Origin: an uncultured bacterium
Lineage (GTDB): Bacteria; Patescibacteriota; Minisyncoccia; Moranbacterales; UBA2206
DNA: 64,000 nucleotides
Assembly (NCBI GenBank): GCA_903831805.1
Contig: CAIKZD010000009.1
Location: 145,192-209,191 of the forward strand
Reading direction: 5' to 3'
Shown: piece after piece, positions 1 through 60,740 of the stretch
Layout of the letters: each line of letters begins with the position of its first letter
Numbering within the stretch: the first letter of the stretch is position 1
Notes under the pieces: generated by a model
Told to the model about the DNA's origin: nothing
Database searches by the model: none
The model's input: only the letters and a program-made list of their open reading frames with translations
Translations under genes and position numbers: made by a program

Positions 1-983
1 ATCTCGGACCAAGTTTTTTTGACCTGCTGGTATTTATAATGAAAAATTTTTCTAGCCGCTATTCCGTAGGAAAAAAGACAACTGTTTGATCCGAAGGATG
101 ACAAGATATAGGCGTTATTCTCCATGTGGCAATTCAGATCCAGCCCGATCTTTTGCGCCAAGTTCGACTGGTCATTGCCTGACGCACCGTTATGCGTGAT
201 TGAGTAGGCAAAAATCTTCGAATTGGAAAAGCCAGTGTGCAGCTCGCTATAGAGCTGAGGAAAATTCAAAACAAACACCACCGCAAAAACCAAAATAATT
301 TTTTTCCACACTCGCCAATTTTTCTTCAAGAGATAAACAGATACCAAGAAAGAAACTGTTCCAAAAAGCAGCGCCGTGATGATGTGCAACTGCAGCCCGA
401 CTCCGCTGGCCACGCCCAATGCAGCCACCCAACCCCAGGCAGTTTTTTCTCGGTGAAGTAAAAATTCATACAGCGCCAATAAAAATAGTAAAGAAAAGAA
501 TGGCAATGAATTGGGATTCCAAGCAAAACGGGAATATTCGACGGCAAAAAATGAAACGGAAAAAAGACCGGTCAACGCCAATGACAGATTGACACTGAAA
601 ATTCTTTTCATAAAAATATAGAACAGCGGAATGGTCAGGATGGAAAAAAGCAAGTCCGGATAGGCTAGCTTATCCGGATAGTTTCCGAAAATTTTGCCGG
701 AAATGATTTGGAAATAATAGTAAATCGGCCCAAGATGAAACAGGCTATCCATGGCATCCTGCGAGCCGCGCATGGTCGGGCCAAGGAGCGGCCAAGCGGT
801 TTTTCCGGTCAAAACATCACTCGCGAGAATTGCGTCCCGCGATTGATCATTTTCAAAATCCAACCAGGCGTGAAAATTGTAGGTGCGTAGAAAAACCCCG
901 ACAAGCATTATTGCTAAAAAAATCCAAAAGCTTTTTGGCGTGTTCTTCAATCTCTCCTTGATTATGACCGCATAATTTTTCAT
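1..983 (-). CDS. GT-C polytopic membrane glycosyltransferase (ArnT/PMT-like), N-terminal ~327 codons; gene continues beyond window start
   Basis: Minus-strand ATG at 981-983 and a frame that stays open to nt 1. It is absent from the ORF track because there is no in-window stop. Hand translation MKNYAVIIKERLK...DQSRD...EYSRFAWNPNSLPFF is clearly paralogous to CDS 2186..3943. Confidence 0.6.
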   Translation of the reverse strand, partial: MKNYAVIIKERLKNTPKSFWIFLAIMLVGVFLRTYNFHAWLDFENDQSRDAILASDVLTGKTAWPLLGPTMRGSQDAMDSLFHLGPIYYYFQIISGKIFGNYPDKLAYPDLLFSILTIPLFYIFMKRIFSVNLSLALTGLFSVSFFAVEYSRFAWNPNSLPFFSLLFLLALYEFLLHREKTAWGWVAALGVASGVGLQLHIITALLFGTVSFLVSVYLLKKNWRVWKKIILVFAVVFVLNFPQLYSELHTGFSNSKIFAYSITHNGASGNDQSNLAQKIGLDLNCHMENNAYILSSFGSNSCLFSYGIAARKIFHYKYQQVKKTWSE

Positions 984-992: not shown

Positions 993-2189
993 TTAAAAAA
1001 ATATTCCAGAATGCAGAAGCATATACACCAAGCCGGACGAGAGTAATAGAAAATAGGTCACTAATACCGCTTCAACTTTAAAACTAAATTCTTTTCGTAA
1101 TAACAAAATTAGGACCAATGGCACAATTGCATAGCGCTGTTCCACGAGCCATGACGGCGCAAGTGCAGCCAGCGCAAACGGAAAAATCATCAGCGCACTT
1201 TTTTCCAGTTTCATGAGAGCTAAAGTTACGCAACCCAAAAAAATCGTGAGCGCATAAGCCCAGGCATATTGATGATAGGCAAAAAATAAAATAATATTTC
1301 GCAAAAATTTCATCTTCATATTATATTCATGCACCGCCGGCGGAAAAAGCAAGAAGGCCGCCGCCAGAATGAGACCGAGGCCCACTCCCCAGCGGATATT
1401 TTTTTCGAGTTTAATTTTTCTGACACTAGCGATAAAAACTGGCAAAAATAACACTCCGACCAAGGCCAAGAAAAAATAAATATTGCCCAAATAGAAACCG
1501 ACTTGCTGGTGGGCTCTGTCCCCGACCGCGACGCCCTTGTTCACAAAAACAAAACCAAGAAACAGAAATGCCACTAGCGCATAGCCGGCGACGCGACGCA
1601 AATGCGCCAGAATTTTTTCCGAAGAAATGACATAGCCGTTTTCTAAAACATAAGTATAGATCCACAGAAAAGCGCCCCAGACGATGTTATTCTGCCGCAC
1701 CAAAAGCGAAATGAACAAAAAAACCGCCGACCAGACATATTTTTTCCGAATGGCGAAATAGAAAGCCAACAGCACCCAGAGCAGTGAAAAAATGTCCGTA
1801 TACATCAACGGGAAATAAAAAAAAGTCACCGGCAGAAAAATATATTGCAGCGTTTTCAATCCTGGATTTTCCGCCTGAAGTTTTCGGGCGGTCAGATAGA
1901 AGATGGGAATGGAAAAAAGCGCCAGGACCAGACTGATAAGACGCAAGTGGGTCGTGCGTAAATTAGGGAAAAAATCAGCGATAGTCGCCACGGTCAAATG
2001 ATAGCCGGGCAGTGTGGTCATTTGAGAGAGCAATTCATAGTTACCTTTCATAAACCGATGAATCTGACGTAAATGATCACTTTCATCCGCATACGAACCA
2101 TCTCCCCAGAAAATCACGCCGACCCAAATGGCGATAGCCACCAGCAAAAAGAAAGCAAATCCCCAGCGTTTTTTATCCATATCTTTCAT
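993..2189 (-). CDS. polytopic membrane protein, putative GT-C glycosyltransferase with DIE2/ALG10-like N-terminal motif
   Basis: The track ORF 993..2216 begins with TTG. The first ATG (2187-2189) overlaps the upstream gene's stop as ATGA. About 10 TM helices are predicted. The motif Y-A-DE-S-D-H-L-RQI near the N-terminus resembles the Y-x-DE-x-F-H-x-PQ motif of the ALG10/DIE2 family. Family assignment is by eye only. Confidence 0.45.
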   Translation of the reverse strand: MKDMDKKRWGFAFFLLVAIAIWVGVIFWGDGSYADESDHLRQIHRFMKGNYELLSQMTTLPGYHLTVATIADFFPNLRTTHLRLISLVLALFSIPIFYLTARKLQAENPGLKTLQYIFLPVTFFYFPLMYTDIFSLLWVLLAFYFAIRKKYVWSAVFLFISLLVRQNNIVWGAFLWIYTYVLENGYVISSEKILAHLRRVAGYALVAFLFLGFVFVNKGVAVGDRAHQQVGFYLGNIYFFLALVGVLFLPVFIASVRKIKLEKNIRWGVGLGLILAAAFLLFPPAVHEYNMKMKFLRNIILFFAYHQYAWAYALTIFLGCVTLALMKLEKSALMIFPFALAALAPSWLVEQRYAIVPLVLILLLRKEFSFKVEAVLVTYFLLLSSGLVYMLLHSGIFF

Positions 2190-3943
2190 TTCTTTACCCC
2201 AAAAATATTTTTCCAATATAACCTATCCGATTCTCCCAGGCTGGAACTTTTTTTCACGTTGAAATCCGGCAGAATAGTTCGGCCTGGAAAAACCAATTCC
2301 CACACTGCAATCTGGCCGAATTGTTTTTCCGACATAACTTGGAAAGGGGCATTGATACCAATTTTATTACCCAAAGAACTGGCTTTGTAATCACTTGGCA
2401 CCACTGCGAAATATTGGGCCTCCGGATCGCCGCTGTCTAATCTAAGCGAGGAATAATAATTCAAGCTCGCATCATGCTTCCCAGAAAATAAATATTCCAA
2501 CGGCCGCACGTGTTCCGGTTTGACATAGAAATAAATTCGACTGCCAGATTGTCTTCGGGCATACATATAATCCGTTGCTCCTTGTAACTGCCCCAGCGTT
2601 ACACCATCTTTTACTTTAAGAATGAGGGTGCGCTTCACAATAGAATGCTTGATTTGAGAAGAGGCTTGTTCTTGGAACCAGGCTCGCGTCCCAACAACAT
2701 TACCGCCAATGACCGCCGCCGCCAAAATGAAAATGGCCATCGGATAGAATTTATGGCGACTCTCTTCCAAGGCTTCAAAAATAAAACCCAGTAGGATAAA
2801 AGGCACGGCGAAAGTGAAGATGAAAAAGCGCGGCCGGATATTATATGACAGCGGAATACACAGCACGAAAAAAACGCTCACCCATAAGAAAATAACCATC
2901 AAAAAATCTTTCTTTTCTTGACTGAGATTACCTCGAATAAATTTTTTAGCAATACAATAAAGACCGCCCAAAAAAATAGCGAGCGTGAACAAGATTGGCA
3001 CATAACTGGTAGACGTAAGATTCTGCGGATAGAGATAGCTAGTAGTAATCATGGTGTAATTACTAAGTTGTTCGTTGAGATTCATCGTAAATTTATCCAA
3101 GAAAGGTTTTTTGACCGGCTTGGAACTGAGGGCCTCGATGAAATCTTTAGTGTTAGCGCCATGCTTGATGGTGTCGCTAATAATGACGGGCGTATAAAAA
3201 ACTAGGAATACTGCCAGGGCCGTGGCGACTGAAAGTAGAATTTTTTTGAGAATATCTTTTTGAAAAATTTTGGCAATATTATTTTTTTGCCAAAGGACAT
3301 AATGATAAATGATTAAAAGACCTGAGACGCCGATGAGACAGAAGAAACCGACAAAATGCAATTGTGATCCGATAGTGAGACCAAGCGACCAGAGAGCCAC
3401 CCACACAACGCGCCATTTTTCCTCTTTGGCATTCAGCAACTTAAGCAGGGCCAAAAAACTCAGAATCGTGAAAAAAGGCAATGAGTTCGGATTCCAAGCG
3501 AAACGAGAATACTCGATAATGATATAGGCGAAGGCATACATCGCAATAATCAGCAGCGACACATAACGCTTGAAATAGTAACGCGCAAAAACATAGAGCA
3601 ATGGCAGGACCATCACCCCGAAGAATAGATCCGGATAGGCAAATACCTCTGGCGAAGTGGAATGGAAAATGACGCCGGACAGATATTGGAAATAGTAGAA
3701 CACTGGCCCAAGATGCAAAAAACCATATTTCACTTTGGTCGCACCGGCGCGCGCCCCGAGGAGCGGCAAATTGCCCGGACCGTTGGTGACCGCACTGGAA
3801 ATGGTGAAGGCATCGCGCGACTGATCCATCTTGAAATAGAGCCAGTCATGAAAATGGTAGAACCGCACCGCAAAAGCCCCTAGCATAATAGCGAGGACAA
3901 TGGCGGGAATGACATATTTTTTCCGGAGGAAATTTTCAAGCAT
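2186..3943 (-). CDS. GT-C polytopic membrane glycosyltransferase (ArnT/PMT-like) with C-terminal extracytoplasmic domain
   Basis: 585 aa. A multi-TM N-terminal ~400 aa region carries an acidic DQSRD loop motif. The C-terminal ~180 aa is soluble. Paralog of the truncated CDS 1..983. Confidence 0.6.
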   Translation of the reverse strand: MLENFLRKKYVIPAIVLAIMLGAFAVRFYHFHDWLYFKMDQSRDAFTISSAVTNGPGNLPLLGARAGATKVKYGFLHLGPVFYYFQYLSGVIFHSTSPEVFAYPDLFFGVMVLPLLYVFARYYFKRYVSLLIIAMYAFAYIIIEYSRFAWNPNSLPFFTILSFLALLKLLNAKEEKWRVVWVALWSLGLTIGSQLHFVGFFCLIGVSGLLIIYHYVLWQKNNIAKIFQKDILKKILLSVATALAVFLVFYTPVIISDTIKHGANTKDFIEALSSKPVKKPFLDKFTMNLNEQLSNYTMITTSYLYPQNLTSTSYVPILFTLAIFLGGLYCIAKKFIRGNLSQEKKDFLMVIFLWVSVFFVLCIPLSYNIRPRFFIFTFAVPFILLGFIFEALEESRHKFYPMAIFILAAAVIGGNVVGTRAWFQEQASSQIKHSIVKRTLILKVKDGVTLGQLQGATDYMYARRQSGSRIYFYVKPEHVRPLEYLFSGKHDASLNYYSSLRLDSGDPEAQYFAVVPSDYKASSLGNKIGINAPFQVMSEKQFGQIAVWELVFPGRTILPDFNVKKSSSLGESDRLYWKNIFGVKK

Positions 3944-4053
3944 ATTCCAATATTATTATAGAAACAAAAAAGACGCAATGCCTGTTTTTCTTTACTGAAA
4001 CTTGAATTATGATATACTTAATCTATCTACATTTAGTCATCTAAACCAATCAT

Positions 4054-4992
4054 ATGAAATCAATTTCCATCATAATTCCGGCTTATAACGAGGAGAAAAA
4101 CATTCCCTTAGTATACCAGGAACTGAAAAAGGTTTTTGTCAAATGCCCAGACTATACTTTTGACATCTTGTTTGTCAACGATGGCAGTGCTGACGGCACC
4201 CTGGCCGCCATTGAAAAATTGGCGGCAGCTGATCAGGCTGTGCACTACCTCGACTTTACACGTAATTTCGGCAAAGAAGTCGCCACCACCGCGGCCTTGA
4301 ACAATTGCCAGGGCGACGCCTGCATATTAGTCGACGCCGATCTGCAGCACCCTGTCGAACTTATCCCAACATTCATCAAAAGTTGGGAAGCTGGTTTTGA
4401 AGTGGTCGTGGGCGTCAGGAATAAAAATAAAAGCGTGGGCATACTGAAAAAAATCGGCTCAGCCATATTCTATAAAATAATTAACCAGATCGCGGAAGTC
4501 AAAGTGGTCCCCAACGCCACGGATTTCCGCTTGCTCGACCGCGCCGTCATCCACGAATTCAATCACTTCACCGAAACCAATCGCATGACACGCGCCCTCA
4601 TTGATTGGCTGGGCTTCCGCAGGGACTATATTCATTTCGACGCCAACGAAAGACTGCACGGTGATGCCAGCTATAGCTTTTGGAAACTTTTCCGCCTAGC
4701 GCTCAACAGCTTCGTATCATTAAGCCTCTTACCCCTGAAACTGGCGGGCAATTTAGGCATCGTCATCACTCTTGTCGCAGGCGTTTCCGGCTTCTACATC
4801 CTGCTGGGGAAATATTTCTTCCATTGGCACTTCGCCGCGACGTTTTCCGATTCAGAAAATTTGGCCATCTTGATCTTATTCCTAGTAGGAATTATCTTGA
4901 TGTCCATCGGGCTCCTAGCGCTCTACATCGCCAATATCCACAGTGAGGTCATCCGTCGACCGATGTATGTGATCCGGAAGAAAAAAGCATAA
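4054..4992 (+). CDS. GT2 polyprenyl-phosphate sugar synthase (GtrB/ArnC/Dpm1-like)
   Basis: 312 aa. IIIPAYNEE...VNDGSAD...VDADLQHP GT-A signature, followed by two C-terminal TM helices typical of GtrB/ArnC. Confidence 0.8.
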   Translation: MKSISIIIPAYNEEKNIPLVYQELKKVFVKCPDYTFDILFVNDGSADGTLAAIEKLAAADQAVHYLDFTRNFGKEVATTAALNNCQGDACILVDADLQHPVELIPTFIKSWEAGFEVVVGVRNKNKSVGILKKIGSAIFYKIINQIAEVKVVPNATDFRLLDRAVIHEFNHFTETNRMTRALIDWLGFRRDYIHFDANERLHGDASYSFWKLFRLALNSFVSLSLLPLKLAGNLGIVITLVAGVSGFYILLGKYFFHWHFAATFSDSENLAILILFLVGIILMSIGLLALYIANIHSEVIRRPMYVIRKKKA

Positions 4993-5017: not shown

Positions 5018-6940
5018 ATGTTCCATAAGAAAAACACCCTTGTTTTTGCAGTTATTTCAATCGTCCTGGCTGCCAATCTGTCCTTTGCCTTGCCACGCAT
5101 CGCTAAATATTCCTCTGTGGACGAGCCCTATTGGACTTATGGCCGTATTGCCAAATTCTGGACCGCCGTCTCCCAACAAAACTGGAGAGGCACTAACATC
5201 AATGACAAGCCCGGCATCACCACTGCCATCCTGGCCGGCCCGGGCCTTTTGGCCATTGACCCGATGCCCTACAAATCACTCCGCGAACAAGTCAAAAGTC
5301 CAGCCACCATCGCCGCCATTCGAAAAATAAACTTTTCTTTCCGCCTGCCGATCTATCTCATGAGTTTGATCTTTTTCCTCTTGTTTTATGTTTTTTTGAA
5401 AAAACTTTTCGGCACCGCCATAGCGCTCTTGTCGCTCATCTTCATCGGACTTTCCCCCATCCTCATTGGCATTTCCCTCATTATCAACCCCGACTCACTC
5501 CTTTGGGGCTTTCTGCCGCTCGCCATCCTTGCCTATTTGATCCACCAGAAAGAATCGGCTGAAAACGAAAAAAGCGAAAAGATAAATTTTGCGGACACCC
5601 CGCCAGGAAAAATAATTTGGCGCATCATAAAAGAAAAGAAATATTTACTGATGGCCGGACTATTTTTAGGTCTGTCTATCCTGACCAAATATGTCGCTAA
5701 CATTTTATATGTCTATCTGCTCGGCCTACTTTTCCTGGAATATATCTACAATTTTCACGCTAAAAAAAATCCAGCCGCCTATCTCAAAAAGGCCATATTT
5801 GAATATCTAGCCGTCATAGTCGTGTCCATGCTCGTCTTCTTCCTGCTTTTTCCGGCTTGTTGGCATACGCCCAGCATGGTCCTGGGTGGCACCTTCCTCA
5901 GTCTGGCTTTCAAATCCACCTGGCCGCTTTTTGCCGGATTTCTCGGTTTGATTTTGGCCGATTTGCTACTTCTAAAAAGTTTTTTCGCAGAAGCCGTTCT
6001 GAATTTTTTAGCCAAACACAAAAATCTATTCAAAAAATTATTCAGCACCCTACTTCTCCTTGGCACGATTTTTGTTTTTGTAAATGTCTACAGAGGCATG
6101 CGATTCATAGATTTTGAAGCGACCGTGGCATCGCCCAAAGGTGGCAGCGGACTGGACCCGCTCAGATTTATCTCAGAACTTTCGGCCAATCTCTATGTCC
6201 TCATCTTCAGTCTCACGCCTTTGGTCTTTCTTTTTTTCCTTTGGGCCATTTTCGTCAACGCCTTCCGAAAAGCAGAACTTGCCACCAGAGAATCTACCGT
6301 CGTCTTGTATTTCTCTATTTTCATCGTGCTCTACTATATCGCTTCGGAAGTTAATCATGTCGTGGCCACCACGCGCTACCAGATTGTTATCTTCCCGATG
6401 GCAGGAATCATGGCCGCCATCGGCTTAAAACAATTCCTCTCGCAGTTTCCCTGGGGAAGCCTGACCTTGCCTACGCACCGTTACTGGACTTATGCGACGA
6501 CCATCCTGCTCTCCGTATTCAGCTTGTATCTCATCTCGCCCTTCTTCTTCAACTATGCCAGCCTACTCCTGCCGCAAAAATACGTCCTTAATCTTAAAGA
6601 CATGGGCGACGGCAGTTATGAAGCGGCGCAATTTCTCAACACTTTGCCGGATGCCAAAAACATCACCATTTGGTCAGATAAAGGCGCGGTATGTGAAACT
6701 TTTGCCGGCACTTGCAAAGTCAGTTTCAGCCGGAAAGACACGGAGGGCATTGCTTTTAAATATTTTGTCGTGTCCACCGGCCGAAAAAGTCGTTCCCTCA
6801 AAATGTCCTCCCCCTTCAACAGTTCAGTGGATTTCAAAAAATTATATTCCTCGGAAGAATCGGGAATTTTCCGCATCAACATTGGCGGACGAGCCAACGA
6901 CTTCGTCAAGGTGGTCCCGATTGAACACATAGCAAAATAA
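5018..6940 (+). CDS. GT-C polytopic membrane glycosyltransferase (GT39/PMT-like)
   Basis: 640 aa. Many TM helices. SVDEPYW acidic motif in the first external loop. Large C-terminal soluble domain. Confidence 0.5.
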   Translation: MFHKKNTLVFAVISIVLAANLSFALPRIAKYSSVDEPYWTYGRIAKFWTAVSQQNWRGTNINDKPGITTAILAGPGLLAIDPMPYKSLREQVKSPATIAAIRKINFSFRLPIYLMSLIFFLLFYVFLKKLFGTAIALLSLIFIGLSPILIGISLIINPDSLLWGFLPLAILAYLIHQKESAENEKSEKINFADTPPGKIIWRIIKEKKYLLMAGLFLGLSILTKYVANILYVYLLGLLFLEYIYNFHAKKNPAAYLKKAIFEYLAVIVVSMLVFFLLFPACWHTPSMVLGGTFLSLAFKSTWPLFAGFLGLILADLLLLKSFFAEAVLNFLAKHKNLFKKLFSTLLLLGTIFVFVNVYRGMRFIDFEATVASPKGGSGLDPLRFISELSANLYVLIFSLTPLVFLFFLWAIFVNAFRKAELATRESTVVLYFSIFIVLYYIASEVNHVVATTRYQIVIFPMAGIMAAIGLKQFLSQFPWGSLTLPTHRYWTYATTILLSVFSLYLISPFFFNYASLLLPQKYVLNLKDMGDGSYEAAQFLNTLPDAKNITIWSDKGAVCETFAGTCKVSFSRKDTEGIAFKYFVVSTGRKSRSLKMSSPFNSSVDFKKLYSSEESGIFRINIGGRANDFVKVVPIEHIAK

Positions 6941-6954: not shown

Positions 6955-8568
6955 ATGGTGCCCTTACGTCATTACAAAAAAATCATCTTCTTCTCGGCCA
7001 TAACTTTAGTCGTGCTGGGTAATTTATTCTTAGTCACAAGAAGTAATCGTGCCATCAGCGTCCCCCAAAAATATCTCTCGCAGGAAGATGGCATCATTCT
7101 TCCGAAAACACTCGTGCCCACGCCTTTCGCTGATTCTTTGAATATAATCGAGACACACTTCCCCGATCGAACCTGCAACATCGCCGATTATGGCGCGGTA
7201 CCGGGAGGGCAAGTTAAAAATACGCAAAGTTTCGCTAAAGCAATTTCCGCTTGCTCGGAGCAGGGCGGAGGAAAAGTCGTGGTTGGCCCAGGCGTTTGGC
7301 TCAGCGGCCCGATAAGGCTTGAAAGTAATATTGATTTAGAAATTCAAAAAGATGCCACACTATTATTCAGCACCGACTTCTCCGATTATTTACCCCCGGT
7401 TTTTTCCCGCTTTGAAGGCGTCGAATATTACAACTATGCCCCACCAATTTACGCCAACAATGCCGAAAATATCGCTATCACCGGAGAGGGAACCTTGAAT
7501 GGCCAAGGCGAGGCGTGGTGGAATTTTTCCGGCAACACTTCCATTGTTAAATTATATGCGATGGGAGAAAGTAATCTACCTGTCGATCATCGCATTTTTG
7601 CGACCGCCAAAGACGGCTTGCGTCCAAGCTTCATCGAATTTGTCAATTGCAACCGGATTTTTCTTTCCGATGTGTCAATCCTAAGAGGTCCGATGTGGAC
7701 TATCCACCCCCTTTACAGCCAAAATATCATCATAAAAAATGTAACCGTCAACACCGCTCCCGGCCCCAGTACGGACGGCATCGTGATCGATTCTTCGCAA
7801 AACGTCCTGGTCGACAATGCCACCCTGTCCACCGGCGACGATGCTATCGTCATCAAATCCGGCCGCGACAATGACGGACGCCGGGTCAACTTGCCTTCAA
7901 AAAATATTGTTTTGCAAAATATCATCATTAATGATGCGCACGGCGCCATCGCCCTCGGCAGTGAAATGTCCGGCAACATAAGCAATGTTTTGGCACAAAA
8001 TTTCACCATTGCCAACGCTCAATATGCTTTTCGCGTCAAATCCAATCAACAACGCGGCGGCACTGCGGAAAATATTTGGATCAAGGATCTGAAAATAAAC
8101 TCCTTGAGTGAGGCGCTCATCCAGCTGGACACCTATTACGAAAGAAGAGTCACCGGCTACACTAATTTCCCACCTGTTTTTCGCAATATCAACATCGACG
8201 GCGTAACTTGCAAAAATACAATCGGTTCCATTAATATTTTCGGACTCTCAGAGAATACTGAGGCTATTAACAATCTTAGCCTAAGGAACATCGCCATTCA
8301 AAAGGCCAGAAGCGGCATGGATATCAATGATGTCCAAGGCATTAATTTTGAAAATGTGTCCATCAATTCTAAATATGGCCCGATTCTCGACGTGAAGGAT
8401 TCGCAAGACGTCACAGTTTCAAATTTCACCTGCCAGAACCCCCGCCTCACCTGTTTCCATATCGGAGGAATAAACACCAAGCACATTATCTTGGACCAAA
8501 AGAATAGCAGTCTGGCTATTGAGAAAGAAGTGTCCAAGAATGAAATAATTACGCCTGCTGCTAACTAG
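6955..8568 (+). CDS. membrane-anchored glycoside hydrolase family 28-like (polygalacturonase-type right-handed beta-helix)
   Basis: 537 aa with an N-terminal TM anchor. Motifs STDGI, TGDDAI, AHGAIALGSE and FRVKS match the GH28 NTD / GDD / G-HG / RIK pattern. Confidence 0.55.
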   Translation: MVPLRHYKKIIFFSAITLVVLGNLFLVTRSNRAISVPQKYLSQEDGIILPKTLVPTPFADSLNIIETHFPDRTCNIADYGAVPGGQVKNTQSFAKAISACSEQGGGKVVVGPGVWLSGPIRLESNIDLEIQKDATLLFSTDFSDYLPPVFSRFEGVEYYNYAPPIYANNAENIAITGEGTLNGQGEAWWNFSGNTSIVKLYAMGESNLPVDHRIFATAKDGLRPSFIEFVNCNRIFLSDVSILRGPMWTIHPLYSQNIIIKNVTVNTAPGPSTDGIVIDSSQNVLVDNATLSTGDDAIVIKSGRDNDGRRVNLPSKNIVLQNIIINDAHGAIALGSEMSGNISNVLAQNFTIANAQYAFRVKSNQQRGGTAENIWIKDLKINSLSEALIQLDTYYERRVTGYTNFPPVFRNINIDGVTCKNTIGSINIFGLSENTEAINNLSLRNIAIQKARSGMDINDVQGINFENVSINSKYGPILDVKDSQDVTVSNFTCQNPRLTCFHIGGINTKHIILDQKNSSLAIEKEVSKNEIITPAAN

Positions 8569-8581: not shown

Positions 8582-9514
8582 TTATTTACGCGCGCGCAGA
8601 TAGACTGGCAGAGCAAAAAAGCTGATAAGCATTTGAACAAAGCGACTGATAATGGCCACGGTCACAGCCGCCGAGGCACTCACCCCGAAAGCGCCAAAAA
8701 AAGCGATGTAGGTCCATTCTTTGATTCCAATATTGTTAATACTGATCGGAATGGAAGAGACAATGCTGATGAGAAAAATGGCTGACAGATAATCCGCCAG
8801 TCCGATTTTTATCCCCAGCGCCGCAAAAAGGATGTAATTAGCCAGAGCCACGCCGATAAAATAAAAAGCGAAAGACAAAACAGTTACTCGTCTCAAGATG
8901 TTGCTATCATTATTATACGTACCCAGATCAATCATAAACGCCACCACTTTGTCCGGGAAATATTTTTTGAAGCGCGCCCAAAAAGACTTTTTGCGCAGTT
9001 TCATAATGAGAATGTCGACCAAAAAAGAAAGGGCCACCAGGAGATTGGCAATGACCAATGTTCGGCTGCCGAGGACGTGGCTAAGATTAAGCACGGTGAA
9101 AAAAATCGTCAAAATAGTGGCCCCGAGAAGACCGGTGATGCGATCCATCATAACAGACGAGGCCGCTTCCAGATATCTATTTTGCGCCTTACCGGTCTCA
9201 TACGCTTTGAAAGTGTCGCCTCCGATAAAAGACGGCATGAAATTATTAATGAACGTCCCGGTCAAATAGTATTTGAAAAAATCGCCGAAAGATAGTTCGA
9301 TTTCTTTGTAGTTGGCCAAGACTTTCCATTTGTAAGCGCAAATAACCATACCCAGAAGAACCGCTAGAATATAGGCCAGCATAAACGGCCATTTGATCGA
9401 TTCAAAATTTTTGAGCACGTTCAACCAATCTACCTTAAAAATCACCCAAAACAAAAAAAAGGCACTGATAATCAGCTTTAGAATTATTTTGATATATTTT
9501 TTAAATATTTTCAT
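8582..9514 (-). CDS. flippase-like membrane protein (LPG-synthase TM / UPF0104-type)
   Basis: 310 aa, 8 TM helices. TFINNFMPSFIGGDTFKAY block typical of the LPG_synthase_TM family, which is commonly paired with GtrB-like GT2 enzymes. Confidence 0.55.
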   Translation of the reverse strand: MKIFKKYIKIILKLIISAFFLFWVIFKVDWLNVLKNFESIKWPFMLAYILAVLLGMVICAYKWKVLANYKEIELSFGDFFKYYLTGTFINNFMPSFIGGDTFKAYETGKAQNRYLEAASSVMMDRITGLLGATILTIFFTVLNLSHVLGSRTLVIANLLVALSFLVDILIMKLRKKSFWARFKKYFPDKVVAFMIDLGTYNNDSNILRRVTVLSFAFYFIGVALANYILFAALGIKIGLADYLSAIFLISIVSSIPISINNIGIKEWTYIAFFGAFGVSASAAVTVAIISRFVQMLISFFALPVYLRARK

Positions 9515-10667
9515 ATAAAGCGTAATATTCTTTCGCTACATTTTGCCAGCTCAACTTGAGAGCGCGCACTCGACTGGCCTCCCCCATTTTTTCCCGCTTT
9601 TCCGGGGAATTGAGCAGTTTTTCAATTTTCGAAGCGATGTCAGTCGCATCTTTCATCTTTATAATATACCCATTCTCGCCGTCCGTCACTAATTCTTTAG
9701 TTCCGCCAGTATCTGTCGCTAAAATAGGAAGTCCGGATGACATTGCCTCAAGAACAGTATTGCTCATACCTTCATTGAGAGACGGCAGAACAAATATCTG
9801 CATACCGCCATAGAAAGCTGGCATCTCGCTATGGCTAAACGATCCTAAAAATTCCACATTGTCGTTGATACCAGATTCTTCAACCTGTCTCTCAAATTTT
9901 AGCCTTGCATTGCCGTCACCAATAATTTTTAATCGCACCTGAGGATATCTTTGCAGTAAAATCGCCGTGGCATCAATCAGATAATTTATCCCTTTCCGGT
10001 CAGTCAGACGAGAAGTGGAAACTATATTAAATTCTCCTTGGGACTCATTATTCTCTTGCGCATCATTAGGTTTGAATTTATCAGTATCAACCCCATTGTA
10101 AATCACCCCGATTTTTTGTTTCGGATTTGTTTTTAAGGCTAGTTCTTTCAGGCCAAGAGAATTGGAAATTACCGCTGCCGCTTGCCGCCAAATTAGTGAG
10201 AAAAGCGGCTTTAGCAAAGCATAAATCAAGGGCCAACGATCGGAATAGCCCGGCACATCCGAACCGCGCAGCGATACGATATAAGGAATCCCAAATTCCC
10301 ACTTGAGCAATATTGAAATGAAGCCACTCGGCAGGGTGAAAAAAGAATGGGACAGGGCATAAGGATGTTTTTCTTTTTGAGCGGTCTTGATCAAACGGCG
10401 CGAAAACCAATAGGCGCGCCAAGTATACATCAGGAGATCTTTGGTTGATTGCAAATGCAGATTGTTGGCATTTTTGCCGATGGGCAAGCGATGAATTTTC
10501 ACGTTCTCGCCAATTTTTTCCAAATGATATTTTTGGTCGACAGAAGAGGTCACCAAATCAACTTGGATATTTTCCATTTTGGCATATTCGCCCAAAATAT
10601 TAGCGGTAGCATTGGCCGCGCCGCCGCCGAGGGGCGGATATTCATAATTTAAAAAAAGAATGCGCAT
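9501..10667 (-). CDS. GT4 family (GT-B) glycosyltransferase
   Basis: EGMSNTVLEAMSSGLPILATDTGG motif. The track ORF starts at TTG 10712. ATG at 10667 gives the classic MRILFLNYEYPPLGGG N-terminus, 4 nt after the upstream stop. Confidence 0.8.
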   Translation of the reverse strand: MRILFLNYEYPPLGGGAANATANILGEYAKMENIQVDLVTSSVDQKYHLEKIGENVKIHRLPIGKNANNLHLQSTKDLLMYTWRAYWFSRRLIKTAQKEKHPYALSHSFFTLPSGFISILLKWEFGIPYIVSLRGSDVPGYSDRWPLIYALLKPLFSLIWRQAAAVISNSLGLKELALKTNPKQKIGVIYNGVDTDKFKPNDAQENNESQGEFNIVSTSRLTDRKGINYLIDATAILLQRYPQVRLKIIGDGNARLKFERQVEESGINDNVEFLGSFSHSEMPAFYGGMQIFVLPSLNEGMSNTVLEAMSSGLPILATDTGGTKELVTDGENGYIIKMKDATDIASKIEKLLNSPEKREKMGEASRVRALKLSWQNVAKEYYALYENI

Positions 10668-10671
10668 AAGC

Positions 10672-12021
10672 CTATTCAAGTTTATCTCCCCTGCCGATGG
10701 CATAATATTCAAAACCAGCTTCCTTCACCACATCCAGATCAAAAAGATTTCTGCCATCGAAGATAATAGGGTTAAGCATTAAGCCTTTGATTTTCTCAAA
10801 ATTAGGCGAGCGGTATTCTTTTGTTTCAGTGGCAATAATGAGAGCTGCACAGCCCTTCAGCATTCCATATTTATCATGCTCCTCATATGATATCCCCTTT
10901 CTTCCTTCAAGATAGATCTCCTTAGCTTCATTAATGGCCAGTGGGTCATAAGCGATAATCTCAGCTCCTTTCTTCAAAAGCTCATCAATAATAACAATGG
11001 AAGCTGATTCTCTCATATCATTAGTATTGGCCTTGAAAGCCAACCCCCAGATGGCGAACTTTTTTCCAGACAGATCTTCTCCGAATCTAGAGATGACCTT
11101 ATTTGAAATAACCGTCTTTTGATAATTATTCACTCCCTCGATAGCTTCCAGTAGATCAAGATAAGGTTGCGGAAGATTTATTTTCTTAGAAGAACTTATT
11201 AAGGCTTTAACATCTTTTGGGAAACAACTGCCACCATAGCCGCAACTGGCATGCAAGAAACTATTGCCGATTCTCGGATCACTACCCATGCCTTCCGCAA
11301 TCTGTTCGACGTCTGAACCCAAAAGTTCTGCAATAGCCGCCACTGTGTTTATATACGATATCTTCATGGCTAAATTAGTATTGGAACTATATTTAGTCAA
11401 CTCAGCTGCCCGCACGCCCATTCTATGAAAACGATCTTCTCTCATCATGAACGGCTTATACAATTTGTGCATTTTAGCCGCCACCTCGTCACTGTCCGTG
11501 CCCAAGACTATTCGACTAGGTTCCATCATATCTTTGACCGCCCGCCCCTCCGCCATAAATTCCGGATTGCTTATGACATGAAATTCAATCTGCTCTCCAC
11601 GCATATCCAATTCACTTTGGATCAAGGCCCTAACTTTTTCAGCGGTCCCGACCGGCACAGTCGATTTATCAGCCACAATGAGAGGGTGTGTCATCCGTCT
11701 TCCAATTTCATGCGCCACACTTTCCACATACCGCATATCGGCACTGCCATCGTCTCCGGGAGGAGTGCCTACGGCTATAAAAACAATTTCCGCTGAAAGA
11801 AGCGTGTCATCATAATCGGATGTAAAATGCAACAGATTTTGATCCATGCCTCTTTTGACCAGCGCTGCTAGTCCTGGCTCTTCTATTGGAAGAATCCCCT
11901 TTTTCAAATTTTCAATTTTTTTCATATCTACGTCAAGGCACCAAATCTCATTTCCCATATCAGCAAAAGCCGCCGCCAGTGGCAACCCGACAAAACCGAT
12001 CCCAACAACTCCAATTTTCAT
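10672..12021 (-). CDS. UDP-glucose/GDP-mannose dehydrogenase family enzyme, most likely UDP-glucose 6-dehydrogenase
   Basis: 449 aa. MKIGVVGIGFVGLPLA Rossmann N-terminus, GYGGSCFPKDV catalytic Cys motif, C-terminal UDP-binding domain. Confidence 0.8.
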   Translation of the reverse strand: MKIGVVGIGFVGLPLAAAFADMGNEIWCLDVDMKKIENLKKGILPIEEPGLAALVKRGMDQNLLHFTSDYDDTLLSAEIVFIAVGTPPGDDGSADMRYVESVAHEIGRRMTHPLIVADKSTVPVGTAEKVRALIQSELDMRGEQIEFHVISNPEFMAEGRAVKDMMEPSRIVLGTDSDEVAAKMHKLYKPFMMREDRFHRMGVRAAELTKYSSNTNLAMKISYINTVAAIAELLGSDVEQIAEGMGSDPRIGNSFLHASCGYGGSCFPKDVKALISSSKKINLPQPYLDLLEAIEGVNNYQKTVISNKVISRFGEDLSGKKFAIWGLAFKANTNDMRESASIVIIDELLKKGAEIIAYDPLAINEAKEIYLEGRKGISYEEHDKYGMLKGCAALIIATETKEYRSPNFEKIKGLMLNPIIFDGRNLFDLDVVKEAGFEYYAIGRGDKLE

Positions 12022-12039
12022 ATTAATAAAAGTGAATTA

Positions 12040-12978
12040 TTAGTGTGTCTCTATTTCTTTGATTGCATAATTCATCCGCCCCTGCTCTTTGTAATAGCCC
12101 CGGATAATAATGTCTGCTAAAAGGCCGAAGATGAAAAGGATGACGCCAATCATAATGAAGAAAACGCCAATGAGCGGCCAAATCTTATCCGCCAGCGAGG
12201 CCTTAAAGAATATTTTTTCCACCGCCATCCAAATGATGATAGCCAAGCCAATGAGCGACAGAACTACGCCGCTGCCACCAAAAAGATGGAGCGGGCGCGA
12301 AGAATATTTCCGCCAGAACCAAATGGAAATCATATCCACCATCCCTTTCATCCCCCGTTTCCAATTATATTTAGTCACGCCGTGCACGCGCGGAAAATGA
12401 TTGACTTTCACTTCGGAAACTTTATAGCCGTCAAACTGCAAAATGGCCGGCATAAAACGATGCATCTCGCCGAACAAATCCACGTCGCGGAAACATTCGC
12501 GTCGATAGGCTTTCAAGGAGCAACCGGAGTCATGGATGTTATCTTCAATCAAGATTTGGCGCACGAGGTTAGCCAGCCGCGAAGACAGTTTTTTCATGAA
12601 CGGATCTTTCCTCTCGGCTCGCCAACCGGCCACCACGTCAAAGCCTTCCGCCATTTTGGCCAGCAGTTTCCCGATATCACTCGGGTCATTTTGCAAATCA
12701 CCGTCCATCGTCACCACCATTTCGCCCGTAGCATTTTTTATCCCCGCGTCAAAACTGGCCGTCTGGCCATAATTCTTGCGAAAACGAATGAGTTTCAACG
12801 GCGCGAGACCCTCGCAATTCTTCACGGTCGCGTCCGTCGACCCGTCATCGATAAAGATAATTTCATATTTTTTTCCCAAAGCTTCGCAAGCATCTTTGAT
12901 GCGGCGATGCAATTCTTTGACATTCCCTTCTTCATTATAAAGTGGCACCACCACCGACAAGTCCATTTTTCCTTCCAT
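12040..12978 (-). CDS. GT2 polyprenyl-phosphate sugar synthase (GtrB/ArnC/Dpm1-like), second copy
   Basis: VVVPLYNEEGN...FIDDGSTD...MDGDLQNDP signature plus two C-terminal TM helices. Confidence 0.8.
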   Translation of the reverse strand: MEGKMDLSVVVPLYNEEGNVKELHRRIKDACEALGKKYEIIFIDDGSTDATVKNCEGLAPLKLIRFRKNYGQTASFDAGIKNATGEMVVTMDGDLQNDPSDIGKLLAKMAEGFDVVAGWRAERKDPFMKKLSSRLANLVRQILIEDNIHDSGCSLKAYRRECFRDVDLFGEMHRFMPAILQFDGYKVSEVKVNHFPRVHGVTKYNWKRGMKGMVDMISIWFWRKYSSRPLHLFGGSGVVLSLIGLAIIIWMAVEKIFFKASLADKIWPLIGVFFIMIGVILFIFGLLADIIIRGYYKEQGRMNYAIKEIETH

Positions 12979-13116
12979 AAGTTTTAAATTTATCCCCCTT
13001 AACTCTTACCCTTCAATAATATTATAATTTAGGCATTATGGCAATTACAAAAAATAGCATATAAAAAAGGCAGCCTTGACGCGACATGACCGCCTTTTCG
13101 TTTCCCCTCCTTACTT

Positions 13117-15934: not shown

Positions 15935-16000
15935 GGCCAATTCCCTCCTGAAATATTTTTAGGCTAATACCTGCCTTTTCACACATTTTCCGTATTTTAA

Positions 16001-24597: not shown

Positions 24598-24610
24598 ATT
24601 TTGTATGCTA

Positions 24611-26192: not shown

Positions 26193-26195
26193 GAG

Positions 26196-32526: not shown

Positions 32527-32543
32527 ATTCTTCAATCAGTTTC

Positions 32544-32572
32544 TTGACCGAGGCTATTTTACCAAGTATTAT
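32544..32572 (+). promoter_or_regulatory. sigma70-like promoter TTGACC-N17-TATTAT
   Basis: Sits 94 nt upstream of the ATG at 32666, in the only sizeable gap of the glycan operon. Confidence 0.4.
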
Positions 32573-32665
32573 AAAGAAGTATTTGAAGAAAATACAGTGA
32601 AATAATCAAGAATGGATGGTATTCTTTCTTTAAACTTAGTAAACCATGTGCTGTTATAAAAAATT

Positions 32666-33727: not shown

Positions 33728-33741
33728 AAGCATTTAAAAAC

Positions 33742-36459: not shown

Positions 36460-36464
36460 ACTGG

Positions 36465-37133: not shown

Positions 37134-37167
37134 ATCATTGATTCTAAATACTTAAACTATACGTAAA

Positions 37168-47664: not shown

Positions 47665-48678
47665 TCATTTCCTATATCCCTCCGGTCTCCTCTCATACCA
47701 CTTCCGAAGACTCTCAATGCTATCGCGCAAAGTTTTCTTAGCTTTCCATCGGAGAACTCTTTGGGCTTTTTTCGGATTGGCGAAAATCTCGGCGTATTCG
47801 CCTTTGCGGGCCGGAGCTTTTTGTTTTTTCATTTTTATCCCAAAAACTTTTTCCACTTCGCTCACGATCTCTTTCACCGAAAATCCGCGGCCGTTGCCCA
47901 AATTGAGAATCTGATTTTGACCGCCATGTTTCAAATAATCCAGAGCGAAAAAATGTGCTTCGACCAGATCTTCCACGTCGATGTAATCACGAATAGGCGT
48001 CTTGTCAGGCGTTTTGACGGTGGGACAAGTGTAGAAAAACGGTTCAATGTTCATGGCGCCACGCACGGCATTTTGCATAAGCAGCAAAGACGGTTTTTTG
48101 CTGTCGCCAATTGTGCCGTCGCTGGCCGCGCCGCAAACATTAAAATAGCGTAGGATGACATATTTAAAATTATGCAGTTCGCCATACCATTTGAGCATCC
48201 TTTCCACTAACATTTTTGATTCGCCGTAAGGATTGGCCGGATCTTGCGGATGCAATTCGTCCACCGGCAAATATTTGGTTTCGCCGTAAGTGGCGCAGGT
48301 GGAAGAAAAAATGATTTTTTTGACATTGGCTTTTCGCATCGCTTCCAAAAGGTTGAAACTGCCCAAAACATTATTTTCAAAATATAGTTCCGGTTGTTCC
48401 ATCGATTCATTAACGGAACACAAGGCGGCAAAATGCAAGACCGCCTCAATTTCATATTTGGCAAAAACTTTTTCAATGTCTGATTTTTTCCGCAAATCAC
48501 CTTTCACAAATTCCAGCGGCCCAAGTTTTTGCAAAATTTCCAAAACTTCGCGATAGCCATGCAAAAGATTATCAAAAACCACTACCTTAAATCCTCTTTC
48601 TAAAAAAAGTTTCACGGCGTGGCTGCCGATATAGCCCGCCCCACCGGTGACTAAAATCGTTGGCTTTTTATTTGGCAT
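47665..48678 (-). CDS. galE: UDP-glucose 4-epimerase
   Basis: 337 aa. ILVTGGAGYIGSH, YxxxK, full-length GalE architecture. Confidence 0.85.
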   Translation of the reverse strand: MPNKKPTILVTGGAGYIGSHAVKLFLERGFKVVVFDNLLHGYREVLEILQKLGPLEFVKGDLRKKSDIEKVFAKYEIEAVLHFAALCSVNESMEQPELYFENNVLGSFNLLEAMRKANVKKIIFSSTCATYGETKYLPVDELHPQDPANPYGESKMLVERMLKWYGELHNFKYVILRYFNVCGAASDGTIGDSKKPSLLLMQNAVRGAMNIEPFFYTCPTVKTPDKTPIRDYIDVEDLVEAHFFALDYLKHGGQNQILNLGNGRGFSVKEIVSEVEKVFGIKMKKQKAPARKGEYAEIFANPKKAQRVLRWKAKKTLRDSIESLRKWYERRPEGYRK

Positions 48679-49656: not shown

Positions 49657-50613
49657 CTACTTTGACATTTTATAGTATTCCTTGTACCACTCCACCCAAT
49701 TCCCAATTCCCTTTTCAATTCTGGTAGTTGGCTTCCACCCAAGCTTGCGAAGTTTCTTGATGTCCGCCACGGTGGTTGGCACGTCGCCCGGTTGCATCGG
49801 GAGCATTTTCTTCTTGGCCTTTTTGCCCATATTCTCTTCCAGCACTTCGATGTAGCGCATGAGCGTCTCTTCTTTGTCGCCGCCGATGTTCATCACACCA
49901 TAACCCTTGCACTTATCGAGCACCGTGAGCGTACCTGAGACTATATCATCAATGTACGAGAAGTTGCGGCTCATTTTGCCACGATTGAAAACATTGATCG
50001 GTTTGTCATGCGCAATGGCATCAGTAAACAGGAACAGGGCCATATCCGGTCGGCCCCAAGGACCATAAACGGTAAAGAAACGCAGGGCGGTGATATTCAG
50101 GCCGTAGATGTGATGATAGACATGGGCGATGAGCTCATCAGCTTTCTTGGACGCGGCGTAGGGCGAAATTTGCGTGTCTACGGGGTCAGTTTCGGAGAAA
50201 GGCGTCTTAGTATTATTGCCATAGACCGAAGAAGAAGACGCAAACACAAAATTTTTGATCTTATATTTCACCGCCGCTTGGAGCAGATTAAGACTGCCCA
50301 TCACATTCACGTCGAAATATAATTTGGGATTGAGCAAAGAATTGCGGACGCCCGCCATGGCGGCCAGATGGATGACTTTATCAATTTTTTCATGCTTGAA
50401 AATCTTCTCGATCAATTTCTCATCCCGAATGTCTCCGCGGTAGAGTTTGAATTTGTAACCTTTCAAAAACTTTTTGATGCGTGCTTCTTTCAGGGTCGAA
50501 TCATAATAATCGTTGAAATTATCAATGATAACCACTCGATCCCCCCGGTCCATTAATTTTTTGGCGCAAGCGCTGCCGATAAACCCCGCCCCGCCGGTAA
50601 TGAGTACTTTCAT
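49657..50613 (-). CDS. NAD-dependent epimerase/dehydratase, UDP-glucuronate 4-epimerase-like
   Basis: 318 aa. MKVLITGGAGFIGS...DNFNDYYD...YAASK. Length and motifs resemble Cap1J/GAE-type UDP-GlcA epimerases. Confidence 0.65.
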   Translation of the reverse strand: MKVLITGGAGFIGSACAKKLMDRGDRVVIIDNFNDYYDSTLKEARIKKFLKGYKFKLYRGDIRDEKLIEKIFKHEKIDKVIHLAAMAGVRNSLLNPKLYFDVNVMGSLNLLQAAVKYKIKNFVFASSSSVYGNNTKTPFSETDPVDTQISPYAASKKADELIAHVYHHIYGLNITALRFFTVYGPWGRPDMALFLFTDAIAHDKPINVFNRGKMSRNFSYIDDIVSGTLTVLDKCKGYGVMNIGGDKEETLMRYIEVLEENMGKKAKKKMLPMQPGDVPTTVADIKKLRKLGWKPTTRIEKGIGNWVEWYKEYYKMSK

Positions 50614-59882: not shown

Positions 59883-60740
59883 CTATTTTTGAGATTTAAT
59901 AAAGTCGCCCAGAACATCTTTCAAATCTTCTCTATCTGAAGCATAAGCTAGAATAGTTTTCAAATAATTGGCTGGATCGCCAGTTGTTAGCCATTGACCG
60001 TCCTTAATTTCTTTAGCCAGGAAAACTCCTCCTCTTCTTATATATTCCTTTATCGCATCAGTCACCCAAAGTTCATTGCCTTTTCCGAGACTGGTGTTTC
60101 TTAGAATATCAATTATTTCCTGGTTTAATATATATCTTCCAAATCCAGCTAAGCGAGAAGGGGCTTCTTCAATGGATGGTTTCTCAATAATGTCTTCCAT
60201 CTGATTGGTCCCCTCTTTCAATTTAACTATGCCATATCTAACCACATCCTTTTGCTCCACTTCCTGCACGCCCATAATCAAATTACCTGTTTTTTCATAA
60301 TCTTCCACCATTTGTTTAGTGAAAGAAGTTTTTGATTTCACCAGATCATCTCCAAAGCAAAAAATGAAAGGTTCATCATCGACGAGACTGGCCGCTGACA
60401 AGATAGGTACGCCGTTCCCATAGGGACCTTTTTGCCTAACGTGCACAAAATTAGCCATCTCGGCTATGCCCTCAATCATCTCAGCCAGATTATCTTTGCC
60501 ATTTTTTCGCAGATCAGCTTCCAATGCCACGCTATGATCGAAATGATCTTCCAGCGGTTTTTTATCCCACCGAGTGACAAAAATTATGTCCTCTATCCCC
60601 GCTTCGACCAATTCTTCCACTACTAATTGAATGATGGGTTTGTCCACAATGGGCAACATTTCTTTGGGCATTGATTTGGTGGCTGGCAGAAGCCGTGTGC
60701 CTGAACCCGCCACCGCGATAATCGCTTTTTTGATCTTCAT
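59883..60740 (-). CDS. galU: UTP--glucose-1-phosphate uridylyltransferase
   Basis: 285 aa. AIIAVAGSGTRLLPATKSMPKEMLPIVDKP. Confidence 0.85.
   Translation of the reverse strand: MKIKKAIIAVAGSGTRLLPATKSMPKEMLPIVDKPIIQLVVEELVEAGIEDIIFVTRWDKKPLEDHFDHSVALEADLRKNGKDNLAEMIEGIAEMANFVHVRQKGPYGNGVPILSAASLVDDEPFIFCFGDDLVKSKTSFTKQMVEDYEKTGNLIMGVQEVEQKDVVRYGIVKLKEGTNQMEDIIEKPSIEEAPSRLAGFGRYILNQEIIDILRNTSLGKGNELWVTDAIKEYIRRGGVFLAKEIKDGQWLTTGDPANYLKTILAYASDREDLKDVLGDFIKSQK

Follow-up and report, generated by a model that had tools for sequence, protein, structure and literature searches.

Two kinds of described system come closest to the subject of this report, a membrane-anchored GH28-type glycoside hydrolase encoded in a 64,000-nucleotide stretch of DNA (contig CAIKZD010000009.1, positions 145,192 to 209,191; hereafter the window) from an uncultured Moranbacterales bacterium of the Patescibacteriota, or candidate phyla radiation (CPR). 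The first kind is catabolic. Thus, Bacteroides thetaiotaomicron BT4155 cleaves galacturonic acid (GalA) remnants off rhamnogalacturonan I oligosaccharides and is encoded in a pectin polysaccharide utilization locus (PMC8002723), and the GH28 genes of Patescibacteria, mentioned in passing in one survey, were counted toward polysaccharide degradation (PMC9868632). The second kind is biosynthetic. In multi-component transmembrane glycosylation, a GT-A enzyme makes an undecaprenyl phosphate (C55-P) sugar, and a flippase and a GT-C glycosyltransferase follow, the latter transferring the sugar outside the membrane (PMC8035078). Rhizobia provide the precedent for GalA on a lipid carrier, with rgtE encoding a bactoprenyl-phosphate GalA transferase and rgtD and rgtF encoding GalA transferases (PMC7663294).

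The CPR locus has features in common with each. Like the Thermotoga maritima exo-polygalacturonase 3JUR and BT4155 (structure 5OLP), the enzyme has a beta-helix fold (TMt 0.83–0.89), an Asp triad, and the accompanying His, Lys and Tyr. Unlike them, it begins with a membrane anchor and a linker, extends about 65 residues further at the C-terminus, and is encoded in a glycosyltransferase cassette, not in a pectin-utilization locus. With the three- and multi-component systems (CsbB/GtcA/YfhO, GtlA/GtlB and ArnC/ArnEF/ArnT; PMC8035078), the cassette shares the clustering of a membrane-bound, ArnC/GtrB-like GT2, a PMT_2-type GT-C and a candidate flippase. It departs from them in that the candidate flippase is LPG_synthase_TM/MprF-like and not GtrA or Wzx, in that the loci hold 5–8 GT-C paralogues each and have the UDP-glucose dehydrogenase Ugd in the cluster, and in having an integral, conserved glycoside hydrolase, of which the descriptions consulted make no mention. 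The Rgt system of Rhizobium and Mesorhizobium (RgtE and the ArnT-like RgtA–D/F; PMC7663294 and its ref. 11) is, as described, a precedent for the proposed chemistry: lipid-phosphate GalA is used by a GT-C to place alpha-GalA on an envelope glycoconjugate, and Ugd and a UDP-glucuronic acid (UDP-GlcA) 4-epimerase are needed. Rgt differs in modifying the lipopolysaccharide core and lipid A of diderms, and has no associated GH28. Hydrolases and lyases associated with biosynthesis are also familiar, namely BcsZ, PslG, PelA and AlgL, and the D-arabinanases of mycobacteria, which occur alongside the Emb/Aft GT-C arrays. The concept is similar, a polymer-specific hydrolase encoded with the synthesis of the cell's own glycan and acting outside the membrane, and the Emb/Aft arrays likewise use polyprenyl-phosphate sugars. 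To our knowledge, however, none of this group is a GH28 and none comes from a CPR bacterium.

We propose that a conserved CPR cassette uses a lipid-carrier-bound uronic acid to decorate or build an envelope glycoconjugate at the outer face of the membrane, and that the GH28 is the hydrolase of this cassette; to this reading we give about an even chance. The argument draws on the protein, on its neighbours in other genomes and on the sugar-nucleotide genes of the window.

The preliminary description of the window, made from the sequence by itself, had called this open reading frame (ORF; Table 1) a membrane-anchored, GH28-type beta-helix hydrolase, and both parts of that call stand. Exactly this ORF matches the Pfam model PF00295 (Glyco_hydro_28; E=9.6e-29, 100.9 bits against a cutoff of 22.9), and the RHGA/epimerase beta-helix model of Pfam also matches. 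The top NCBIfam model is that of the BT4155-type alpha-D-galacturonidase; its score of 318.7 bits, well below the equivalog cutoff of 800, marks the protein as related without being an equivalog. The best sequence relatives in the PDB are 3JUR (E=3.6e-87) and 5OLP (E=6.2e-82), each with about 37–38% identity over about 410 residues. The AlphaFold2 model, built from 21 homologues (pLDDT 88.2, pTM 0.86), consists of an N-terminal helix, a disordered linker and then a right-handed parallel beta-helix. With this model, Foldseek ranked 5OLP (TMt 0.89), 3JUR (0.83) and the Yersinia exo-polygalacturonase 2UVF first, and the top 11 rows were chains of GH28 structures only; endo-polygalacturonases, AlgE epimerases and phage tailspikes scored far lower. 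In NCBIfam, PDB and Foldseek alike, the nearest relatives by sequence and structure are exo-acting enzymes. Interpreting the beta-helix as a mannuronan C5-epimerase or lyase was rejected on two grounds: the fold match to AlgE4 is far weaker, with an E of about 3e-8 compared with 9e-28 for 5OLP, and the GH28 catalytic set is complete.

This set comprises the motifs S-T-D274, G-D295-D296, H329-G and R360-V-K362, plus Y395. The catalytic Asp triad, D274, D295 and D296, is invariant in an alignment of the 21 homologues, as is K362; these four residues and H329 are kept in all 11 aligned members of the CPR clade and in 3JUR and 5OLP, with R360 kept in 9 and Y395 in 10 of the 11. At the position of R360, 3JUR also has Arg, and BT4155 has Phe. 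We take this residue to belong to the +1 subsite; its retention may mean, as a lead only, that the +1 sugar of the substrate also bears a carboxylate. The sole strongly hydrophobic stretch of the protein, at residues ~9–28, is preceded by a basic n-region and falls within the N-terminal helix of the model, so the catalytic domain should face outward, anchored to the membrane. Judged from its sequence, the protein is an intact, exported, exo-type GH28 for which galacturonosyl hydrolysis is predicted.

The N-terminus is strongly hydrophobic in all CPR homologues, whereas several non-CPR relatives have no signal sequence and are presumably cytoplasmic. The nearest named homologues come from metagenome-assembled genomes (MAGs) of Candidatus Moraniibacteriota, Moranbacteria and Pacebacteria, in agreement with a place of the window in the Patescibacteria, and the CPR enzymes form a single clade in a rough neighbour-joining tree without support values. 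At least 18 public contigs, drawn from several samples, carry an identical protein in identical synteny, so the locus is not an assembly artefact.

The same relationships can be read in another way, whereby the anchored enzyme frees GalA from an external polymer, be it plant or algal pectin or a uronic-acid glycan of the host. The GalA would then feed the CPR cell, or the host surface would be breached or remodelled, and the GT-C setting would be a mere island of surface-function genes. Indeed, the nearest characterized relatives are catabolic exo-galacturonidases (3JUR, and BT4155 of the pectin locus; PMC8002723), the literature treats GH28 of Patescibacteria as a polysaccharide-degradation gene (PMC9868632), the enzyme is predicted to be exported, and R360 of the RIK motif is kept as in the homogalacturonan-active 3JUR and unlike in BT4155. 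It is the genomic neighbourhood that makes both forms of this reading, nutrient scavenging and host attack, possible but doubtful in our view. We compared 80 genome and 80 metagenome loci encoding GH28 relatives, plus three contigs obtained by exact look-up, with the proteins of the window. Eighteen loci are CPR-type (the window, L004–L007, L009–L011, L017, L025, L027, L044 and L084–L089); three of them (L087–L089) come from the metagenome set, the other 77 loci of which are non-CPR, and two pairs (L004/L009 and L025/L044) are GH28 copies, each pair on one contig. The GH28s of the CPR-type loci belong to different species-level MAGs and are 37–65% identical to the query. GT-C genes lie beside GH28 in 18/18 of these loci. 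In 16, a GT-C of the PMT_2 or ALG10 type is directly upstream on the same strand, with spacings from about −120 nt (an overlap) to +77 nt; in L006 and L017 the adjoining GT-C is on the opposite strand. So constant a partner across divergent loci would be difficult to account for if the two were not functionally connected.

Other neighbours recur less regularly. In 10/18 CPR loci a flippase-like gene is found no more than 5 kb from GH28, and in 8/18 Ugd is found within 10 kb; at least five of these eight also have the GT4 and the ArnC-like GT2, the latter being the most conserved gene of the cassette (66–73% identity). No cassette neighbour was found in about 145 non-CPR loci (Bacteroidota, Verrucomicrobiota, Planctomycetota, Actinomycetota, Chloroflexota and others). 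The flanks of four sampled non-CPR loci are instead catabolic, with SusC/SusD, a BD-FAE esterase, DUF4861, MFS and SSF transporters, a LacI regulator, GH43 and a second GH28. When the previously unlabelled flanking ORFs of seven CPR loci were annotated, they yielded more PMT_2 proteins, AsnB-type amidotransferases and metallophosphoesterases, and no transporter or catabolic gene. The lack of any transporter, regulator or uronate-catabolic gene in the annotated CPR flanks, unlike in the four non-CPR contexts, speaks against scavenging or host attack, as does the fact that the glycan genes of the window are all biosynthetic. At the level of gene order, the conserved synteny gives real support to the trimming of a self-glycan.

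Within the window, three plus-strand genes form a run, from the PgfS/ArnC-like GT2 (hereafter the operon GT2) through the PMT-type GT-C to the GH28, with gaps of 25 and 14 nt. A promoter-like site at 3991–4018 lies ahead of the operon GT2, and promoter and terminator scans of the window gave nothing else informative. The GH28 is presumably co-transcribed with the upstream GT-C. This GT-C, together with the flippase-like protein and the ArnC-like synthase, had been overlooked as a conserved partner in the preliminary description. Among its orthologues, Pfam PMT_2 is matched by 10/10 and PMT by 9/10, and they share an invariant D35-E36 near the N-terminus (an acidic motif in the predicted first outer loop) and a conserved soluble C-terminal region. 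Against the PDB, neither the single sequence nor a 10-sequence profile gave anything usable, the best match being a PMT at E=0.09. From the other side, a minus-strand run converges on the GH28, in the order ArnC-like GT2, Ugd, GT4 and LPG_synthase_TM flippase-like gene, with 13 nt between the end of the last and the GH28 stop codon. A GtrA-type flippase gene was not found in the cassette; the LPG_synthase_TM/TIGR00374 protein is conserved there instead. The GT2 beside ugd is closest in the PDB to ArnC, then to GtrB and Dol-P-Man synthase (DPMS), and is thus assigned as a polyprenyl-phosphate sugar synthase; it has two C-terminal transmembrane helices. For the GT4 we used the 388-aa call, as in L001, since a longer one from a TTG start at 10712 would overlap ugd. 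Its orthologues (44–77% identity) adjoin ugd in L005, L011, L017, L027, L084, L087 and L088.

The operon GT2 suggests a different role for its neighbours, in which it and the PMT-type GT-C would O-glycosylate the secreted GH28 itself, whose own target would then be unrelated to the cassette sugar. PgfS is the best NCBIfam match of this GT2, the partner GT-C is PMT-type and has the D-E pair typical of protein O-mannosyltransferases, and a disordered linker is available between the anchor and the catalytic domain. A precedent for the arrangement exists in S. mutans, where the pgf genes flank cnm, the adhesin that is their own substrate. However, the PgfS score of 228.8 bits is far below the 500-bit cutoff, and the linker is not Ser/Thr-rich. 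Furthermore, the frequent Ugd, ArnC-like GT2 and flippase-like neighbours point to a uronic acid, that is, to the class of sugar that GH28 recognizes, which would be a coincidence if the GH28 were a client of the cassette. We regard this as quite unlikely.

The proposed substrate also calls for a source of UDP-GalA. The preliminary description had listed a UDP-glucose dehydrogenase, a UDP-glucuronate 4-epimerase-like gene and galU as a complete route, and each gene is borne out. The best PDB matches of Ugd are UDP-glucose dehydrogenases (2Y0E at 5.4e-129, against 7e-48 for a GDP-mannose dehydrogenase). For GalU, TIGR01099 is clearly the best match, yet its 285.8 bits stay below the cutoff of 326.8. 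The epimerase belongs among the short-chain dehydrogenases/reductases (SDRs), and its N-terminus, GGAGFIGS, carries the GxxGxxG motif of extended SDRs. Its PDB matches are 5U4Q (1.5e-98), deposited as a 'dTDP-glucose 4,6-dehydratase' and which we take to be a uronate epimerase homologue, and the biochemically characterized Bacillus cereus UDP-GlcA 4-epimerase BcUGAepi (6ZL6, 5.5e-54); E. coli GalE (~1e-36) and the decarboxylase UXS (~3e-32) match more weakly. In the alignment, S127, Y152 and K156 correspond to T126, Y149 and K153 of BcUGAepi (the S/T-Y-K triad), and S128, S129, T181 and R188 to S127, S128, T178 and R185. In BcUGAepi, T126, S127, S128 and T178 form a carboxylate-binding network and Arg185 holds the carboxylate of UDP-GalA, and UDP-GlcA decarboxylases have Glu in place of Ser128 (PMC7984243, PMC12338863). 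Two other assignments of the SDR were rejected. It is not read as GalE, because its best relatives are of the UGAepi type, it has the residues that bind the carboxylate, and a true GalE is encoded separately next door; nor is it read as a decarboxylase of the UXS/ArnA type, because it has Ser, not Glu, at the position equivalent to Ser128. The SDR thus groups with the UDP-GlcA 4-epimerases. The preliminary description had named two checks of its reading, the Asp triad of the GH28 and the grouping of this epimerase, and both came out in its favour. At annotation level, the route from Glc-1-P through UDP-Glc and UDP-GlcA to UDP-GalA is encoded in the window.

Put together, GalU would make UDP-Glc, Ugd would make UDP-GlcA and the UGAepi-type SDR would make UDP-GalA. 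The ArnC-like GT2 beside ugd would load GalA (or GlcA) onto polyprenyl phosphate with inversion, giving a beta-linked lipid donor that the LPG_synthase_TM flippase-like protein would carry outward. The PMT-type GT-C paralogues would then transfer the sugar with a second inversion, leaving alpha-D-GalA on a protein, lipid or polymer acceptor. On the same face, the tethered GH28 would remove terminal alpha-GalA by exo-acting, inverting hydrolysis through D274, D295 and D296, and such trimming would control how long or how extensive the anionic decoration becomes, or serve to turn it over. Because both transfers would be inverting, UDP-alpha-D-GalA would end as alpha-D-GalA, the linkage that GH28 enzymes cleave; this stereochemistry, taken from established knowledge of three-component GT2/GT-C systems (PMC8035078) and from the rhizobial rgt precedent for GalA transfer from a lipid carrier (PMC7663294), fits an action of the GH28 on the cassette product. 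We infer the sugar carried, the acceptor and this action, the uronic acid being deduced from the adjacency of Ugd and the specificity of GH28.

The lipid donor itself might be considered as the substrate. The GH28 would then hydrolyse stalled lipid-linked GalA on the outer leaflet and free the polyprenyl phosphate, with a purpose like that of UshA and UpsH of B. subtilis, dedicated hydrolases that release undecaprenyl phosphate (UndP) from UndP-sugars and UndPP-polymers (PMC11898649). Besides this precedent, L007 has two tandem metallophosphoesterases (11449–13121), of the class to which UpsH belongs, immediately after the GH28 and on its strand. The association is seen in this one locus only, however, and the chemistry is unlikely, since GH28 cleaves alpha-glycosidic bonds and the expected donor is a beta-linked glycosyl phosphate, not a known GH28 substrate. 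We rate carrier-lipid rescue as very improbable.

Having raised the case for self-glycan trimming, we would note several points that weigh against it. First, the preliminary description had suggested that the organism builds its own galacturonate polymer and trims it with its own GH28. The trimming part has gained from the conserved GT-C synteny, but two of the supply genes are distant: the UGAepi-type SDR is 41 kb and galU ~51 kb from the GH28, and in the other CPR loci no UGAepi was found within 10 kb of it, just unrelated or partial SDRs (L005, L027), while GalU, also sought there, was not found. Ugd itself is near GH28 in just 8/18 CPR loci, though many of those contigs are short. Second, the identity of the sugar is exposed to doubt. 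GalA in CPR bacteria is a genomic prediction, the ArnC-like GT2 next to ugd might just as well act on GlcA or some other sugar, and the operon GT2, being PgfS-like, may handle a neutral one. Third, GH28 enzymes of the BT4155/TM0437-type subgroup are otherwise all catabolic, the crude neighbour-joining tree offers no support values, and the adjacency of the genes could reflect a shared surface localization or the glycosylation of the GH28 itself. With these points counted, our best reading of the genomic context, at about an even chance, is still that the GH28 trims or edits alpha-GalA installed by an extracytoplasmic glycosylation system, rather than digesting plant pectin.

A wider form of this proposal is that CPR bacteria mature a glycan at the outer face by an 'add-and-trim' process with a logic like that of glycan processing in the eukaryotic ER, in which GT-C arrays of the PMT and ALG10 types, fed with a polyprenyl-phosphate uronic acid, build an alpha-galacturonate glycan on protein or lipid and the tethered GH28 edits it. 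We put this forward tentatively, as an unlikely extension.

In the literature we found no precedent for a Moranbacteria polygalacturonase, and searches for GH28 within exopolysaccharide biosynthesis clusters returned nothing relevant by title or abstract. The searchable literature gives no account of a membrane-anchored GH28 clade specific to CPR bacteria, nor of its unvarying place within GT-C arrays alongside a flippase-like gene, Ugd and an ArnC-like GT2. Every component of the cassette is from a known family, and hydrolases encoded with polysaccharide synthesis are a known theme. Were the GH28 truly part of an envelope-glycan module, it would be the first of its family to be given a part in processing an endogenous glycan, and an example of a hydrolase integral to a lipid-carrier/GT-C glycosylation system; a canonical pectinase family would have been recruited to work on a self-glycan. 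Surveys that score GH28 of Patescibacteria as plant polysaccharide degradation (e.g. PMC9868632) would then be drawing a wrong inference for the CPR clade, and such counts would be no sign of pectin degradation. It would also offer a concrete way to test ideas on the little-known surface chemistry of CPR bacteria, the interface by which they attach to hosts.

Table 1. Features of the GH28 locus and of the UDP-GalA route (positions in the window; residue numbers refer to the GH28 protein)
Feature	Position	Strand	Evidence or remark
PMT_2-type GT-C, 3' part	1..983	-	array member; cut by window edge
DIE2/ALG10-family GT-C	993..2216	-	Pfam PF04922, E=6.5e-35
GT-C-like membrane protein	2186..3943	-	weak PMT_2 and Agl23-like matches
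GT2 polyprenyl-phosphate sugar synthase, PgfS/ArnC-like	4054..4992	+	first gene of operon; NCBIfam PgfS 228.8, ArnC 130.6 bits
PMT-type GT-C, conserved upstream partner of GH28	5018..6940	+	Pfam PMT_2/PMT; D35-E36
GH28 exo-alpha-galacturonidase-like hydrolase	6955..8568	+	537 aa; Pfam, NCBIfam, PDB, AlphaFold2, Foldseek
GH28 transmembrane anchor	residues 3-30 (nt 6961-7044)	+	model and sequence
GH28 linker	about residues 29-46	+	disordered in AlphaFold2 model
GH28 beta-helix	residues 51-522	+	AlphaFold2 model
GH28 catalytic residues	D274 (nt 7774-7776), D295/D296 (7837-7842), H329 (7939-7941), R360/K362 (8032-8040), Y395 (8137-8139)	+	alignment
Flippase-like membrane protein (LPG_synthase_TM / TIGR00374)	8582..9514	-	Pfam PF03706, E=1.1e-39; TIGR00374 'flippase-like domain'
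GT4 glycosyltransferase, cytoplasmic	9501..10667	-	Pfam Glycos_transf_1, E=8e-45
UDP-glucose 6-dehydrogenase (Ugd)	10672..12021	-	three Pfam UDPG_MGDP_dh domains; TuaD model 425 bits; PDB
ArnC/GtrB-like GT2 polyprenyl-phosphate sugar synthase, paired with ugd	12040..12978	-	PDB ArnC 1.8e-48, GtrB 4e-32
UDP-glucose 4-epimerase GalE, bona fide	47665..48678	-	TIGR01179 360.9 bits, above 262.3 cutoff
UDP-glucuronate 4-epimerase-type SDR	49657..50613	-	S127 S128 S129, Y152, K156, T181, R188; PDB
UTP--glucose-1-phosphate uridylyltransferase (GalU)	59883..60740	-	TIGR01099 285.8 bits; Pfam NTP_transferase

The GT-C array of the window deserves some further description. It extends beyond the window edge, with three more PMT_2 genes upstream in L001, and paralogues of its truncated first member occur in 1–5 copies in most mapped CPR loci. 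The next gene is a bacterial member of the DIE2/ALG10 family, the eukaryotic enzyme of which is the Dol-P-Glc alpha-1,2-glucosyltransferase of N-glycan assembly; its orthologues adjoin GH28 in L010, L011, L044 and L086. Orthologues of the GT-C-like membrane protein are found at 46–59% identity in L004, L005, L007, L009, L010, L011 and L084 and at 64–81% in L087–L089.

Several of the compared loci have peculiarities of their own. In L010 (13632–15554) and L086 (12475–14358), AsnB-type glutamine amidotransferases adjoin the flippase-like gene. Enzymes of this type amidate uronic acids in other glycan pathways, and those of L010 and L086 may do so here, which we mention as a lead only. On the contig of L004 and L009 (CAYQPQ010000003.1), a single GT-C array is flanked by a pair of GH28 paralogues with 44% and 40% identity to the query; the contig is labelled 'Bdellovibrionales', a taxonomic label for this MAG that is probably wrong because the gene content is CPR-like. 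The L004 flank also holds a NUDIX protein and a transposase. In L027, from a Moranbacteria MAG, the GH28 (9800–11453) is split into ORFs 9800–10297 and 10581–11453, which points to a frameshift or pseudogene, or to an assembly error; the rest of the cassette is intact.

Farther along the window, positions 24000–48000 form a low-GC island (31–36% GC, against 42–47% on either side). Within it, a second glycan cluster (25162–42049) encodes several GT2 and GT4 enzymes, at least four methyltransferases, a polysaccharide deacetylase-like protein, a DegT aminotransferase, a PglD-like acetyltransferase and a Wzx-type flippase. The cluster has the look of a surface-glycan locus that is hypervariable or was acquired horizontally. 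The island also contains a defence-like block (42749–47575), with a Schlafen/AlbA_2 and HATPase_c_4 protein (43765–45156), a weak HATPase protein and an AbiEii toxin (46174–46965) followed by an unannotated 206-aa ORF (46955–47575) that could be the partner of the toxin. A Schlafen AlbA_2 protein is likewise present in the GT-C array of L084.

Between the GH28 cassette and the island, two minus-strand genes (16728–19781 and 21358–24678) encode proteins of 1017 and 1106 aa that combine an LCAT/PGAP1-like lipase with beta-helix, Ig-like and HYR domains and may be surface lipases or acyltransferases of an episymbiont. A plus-strand gene for an AAA_14/DUF4143 ATPase (20083–21342) is inserted between the two. 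Finally, a single 586-aa ORF (14180–15940, minus strand) fuses the Fe-S electron-transfer subunit domain of DHOD-B with the catalytic domain of dihydroorotate dehydrogenase.

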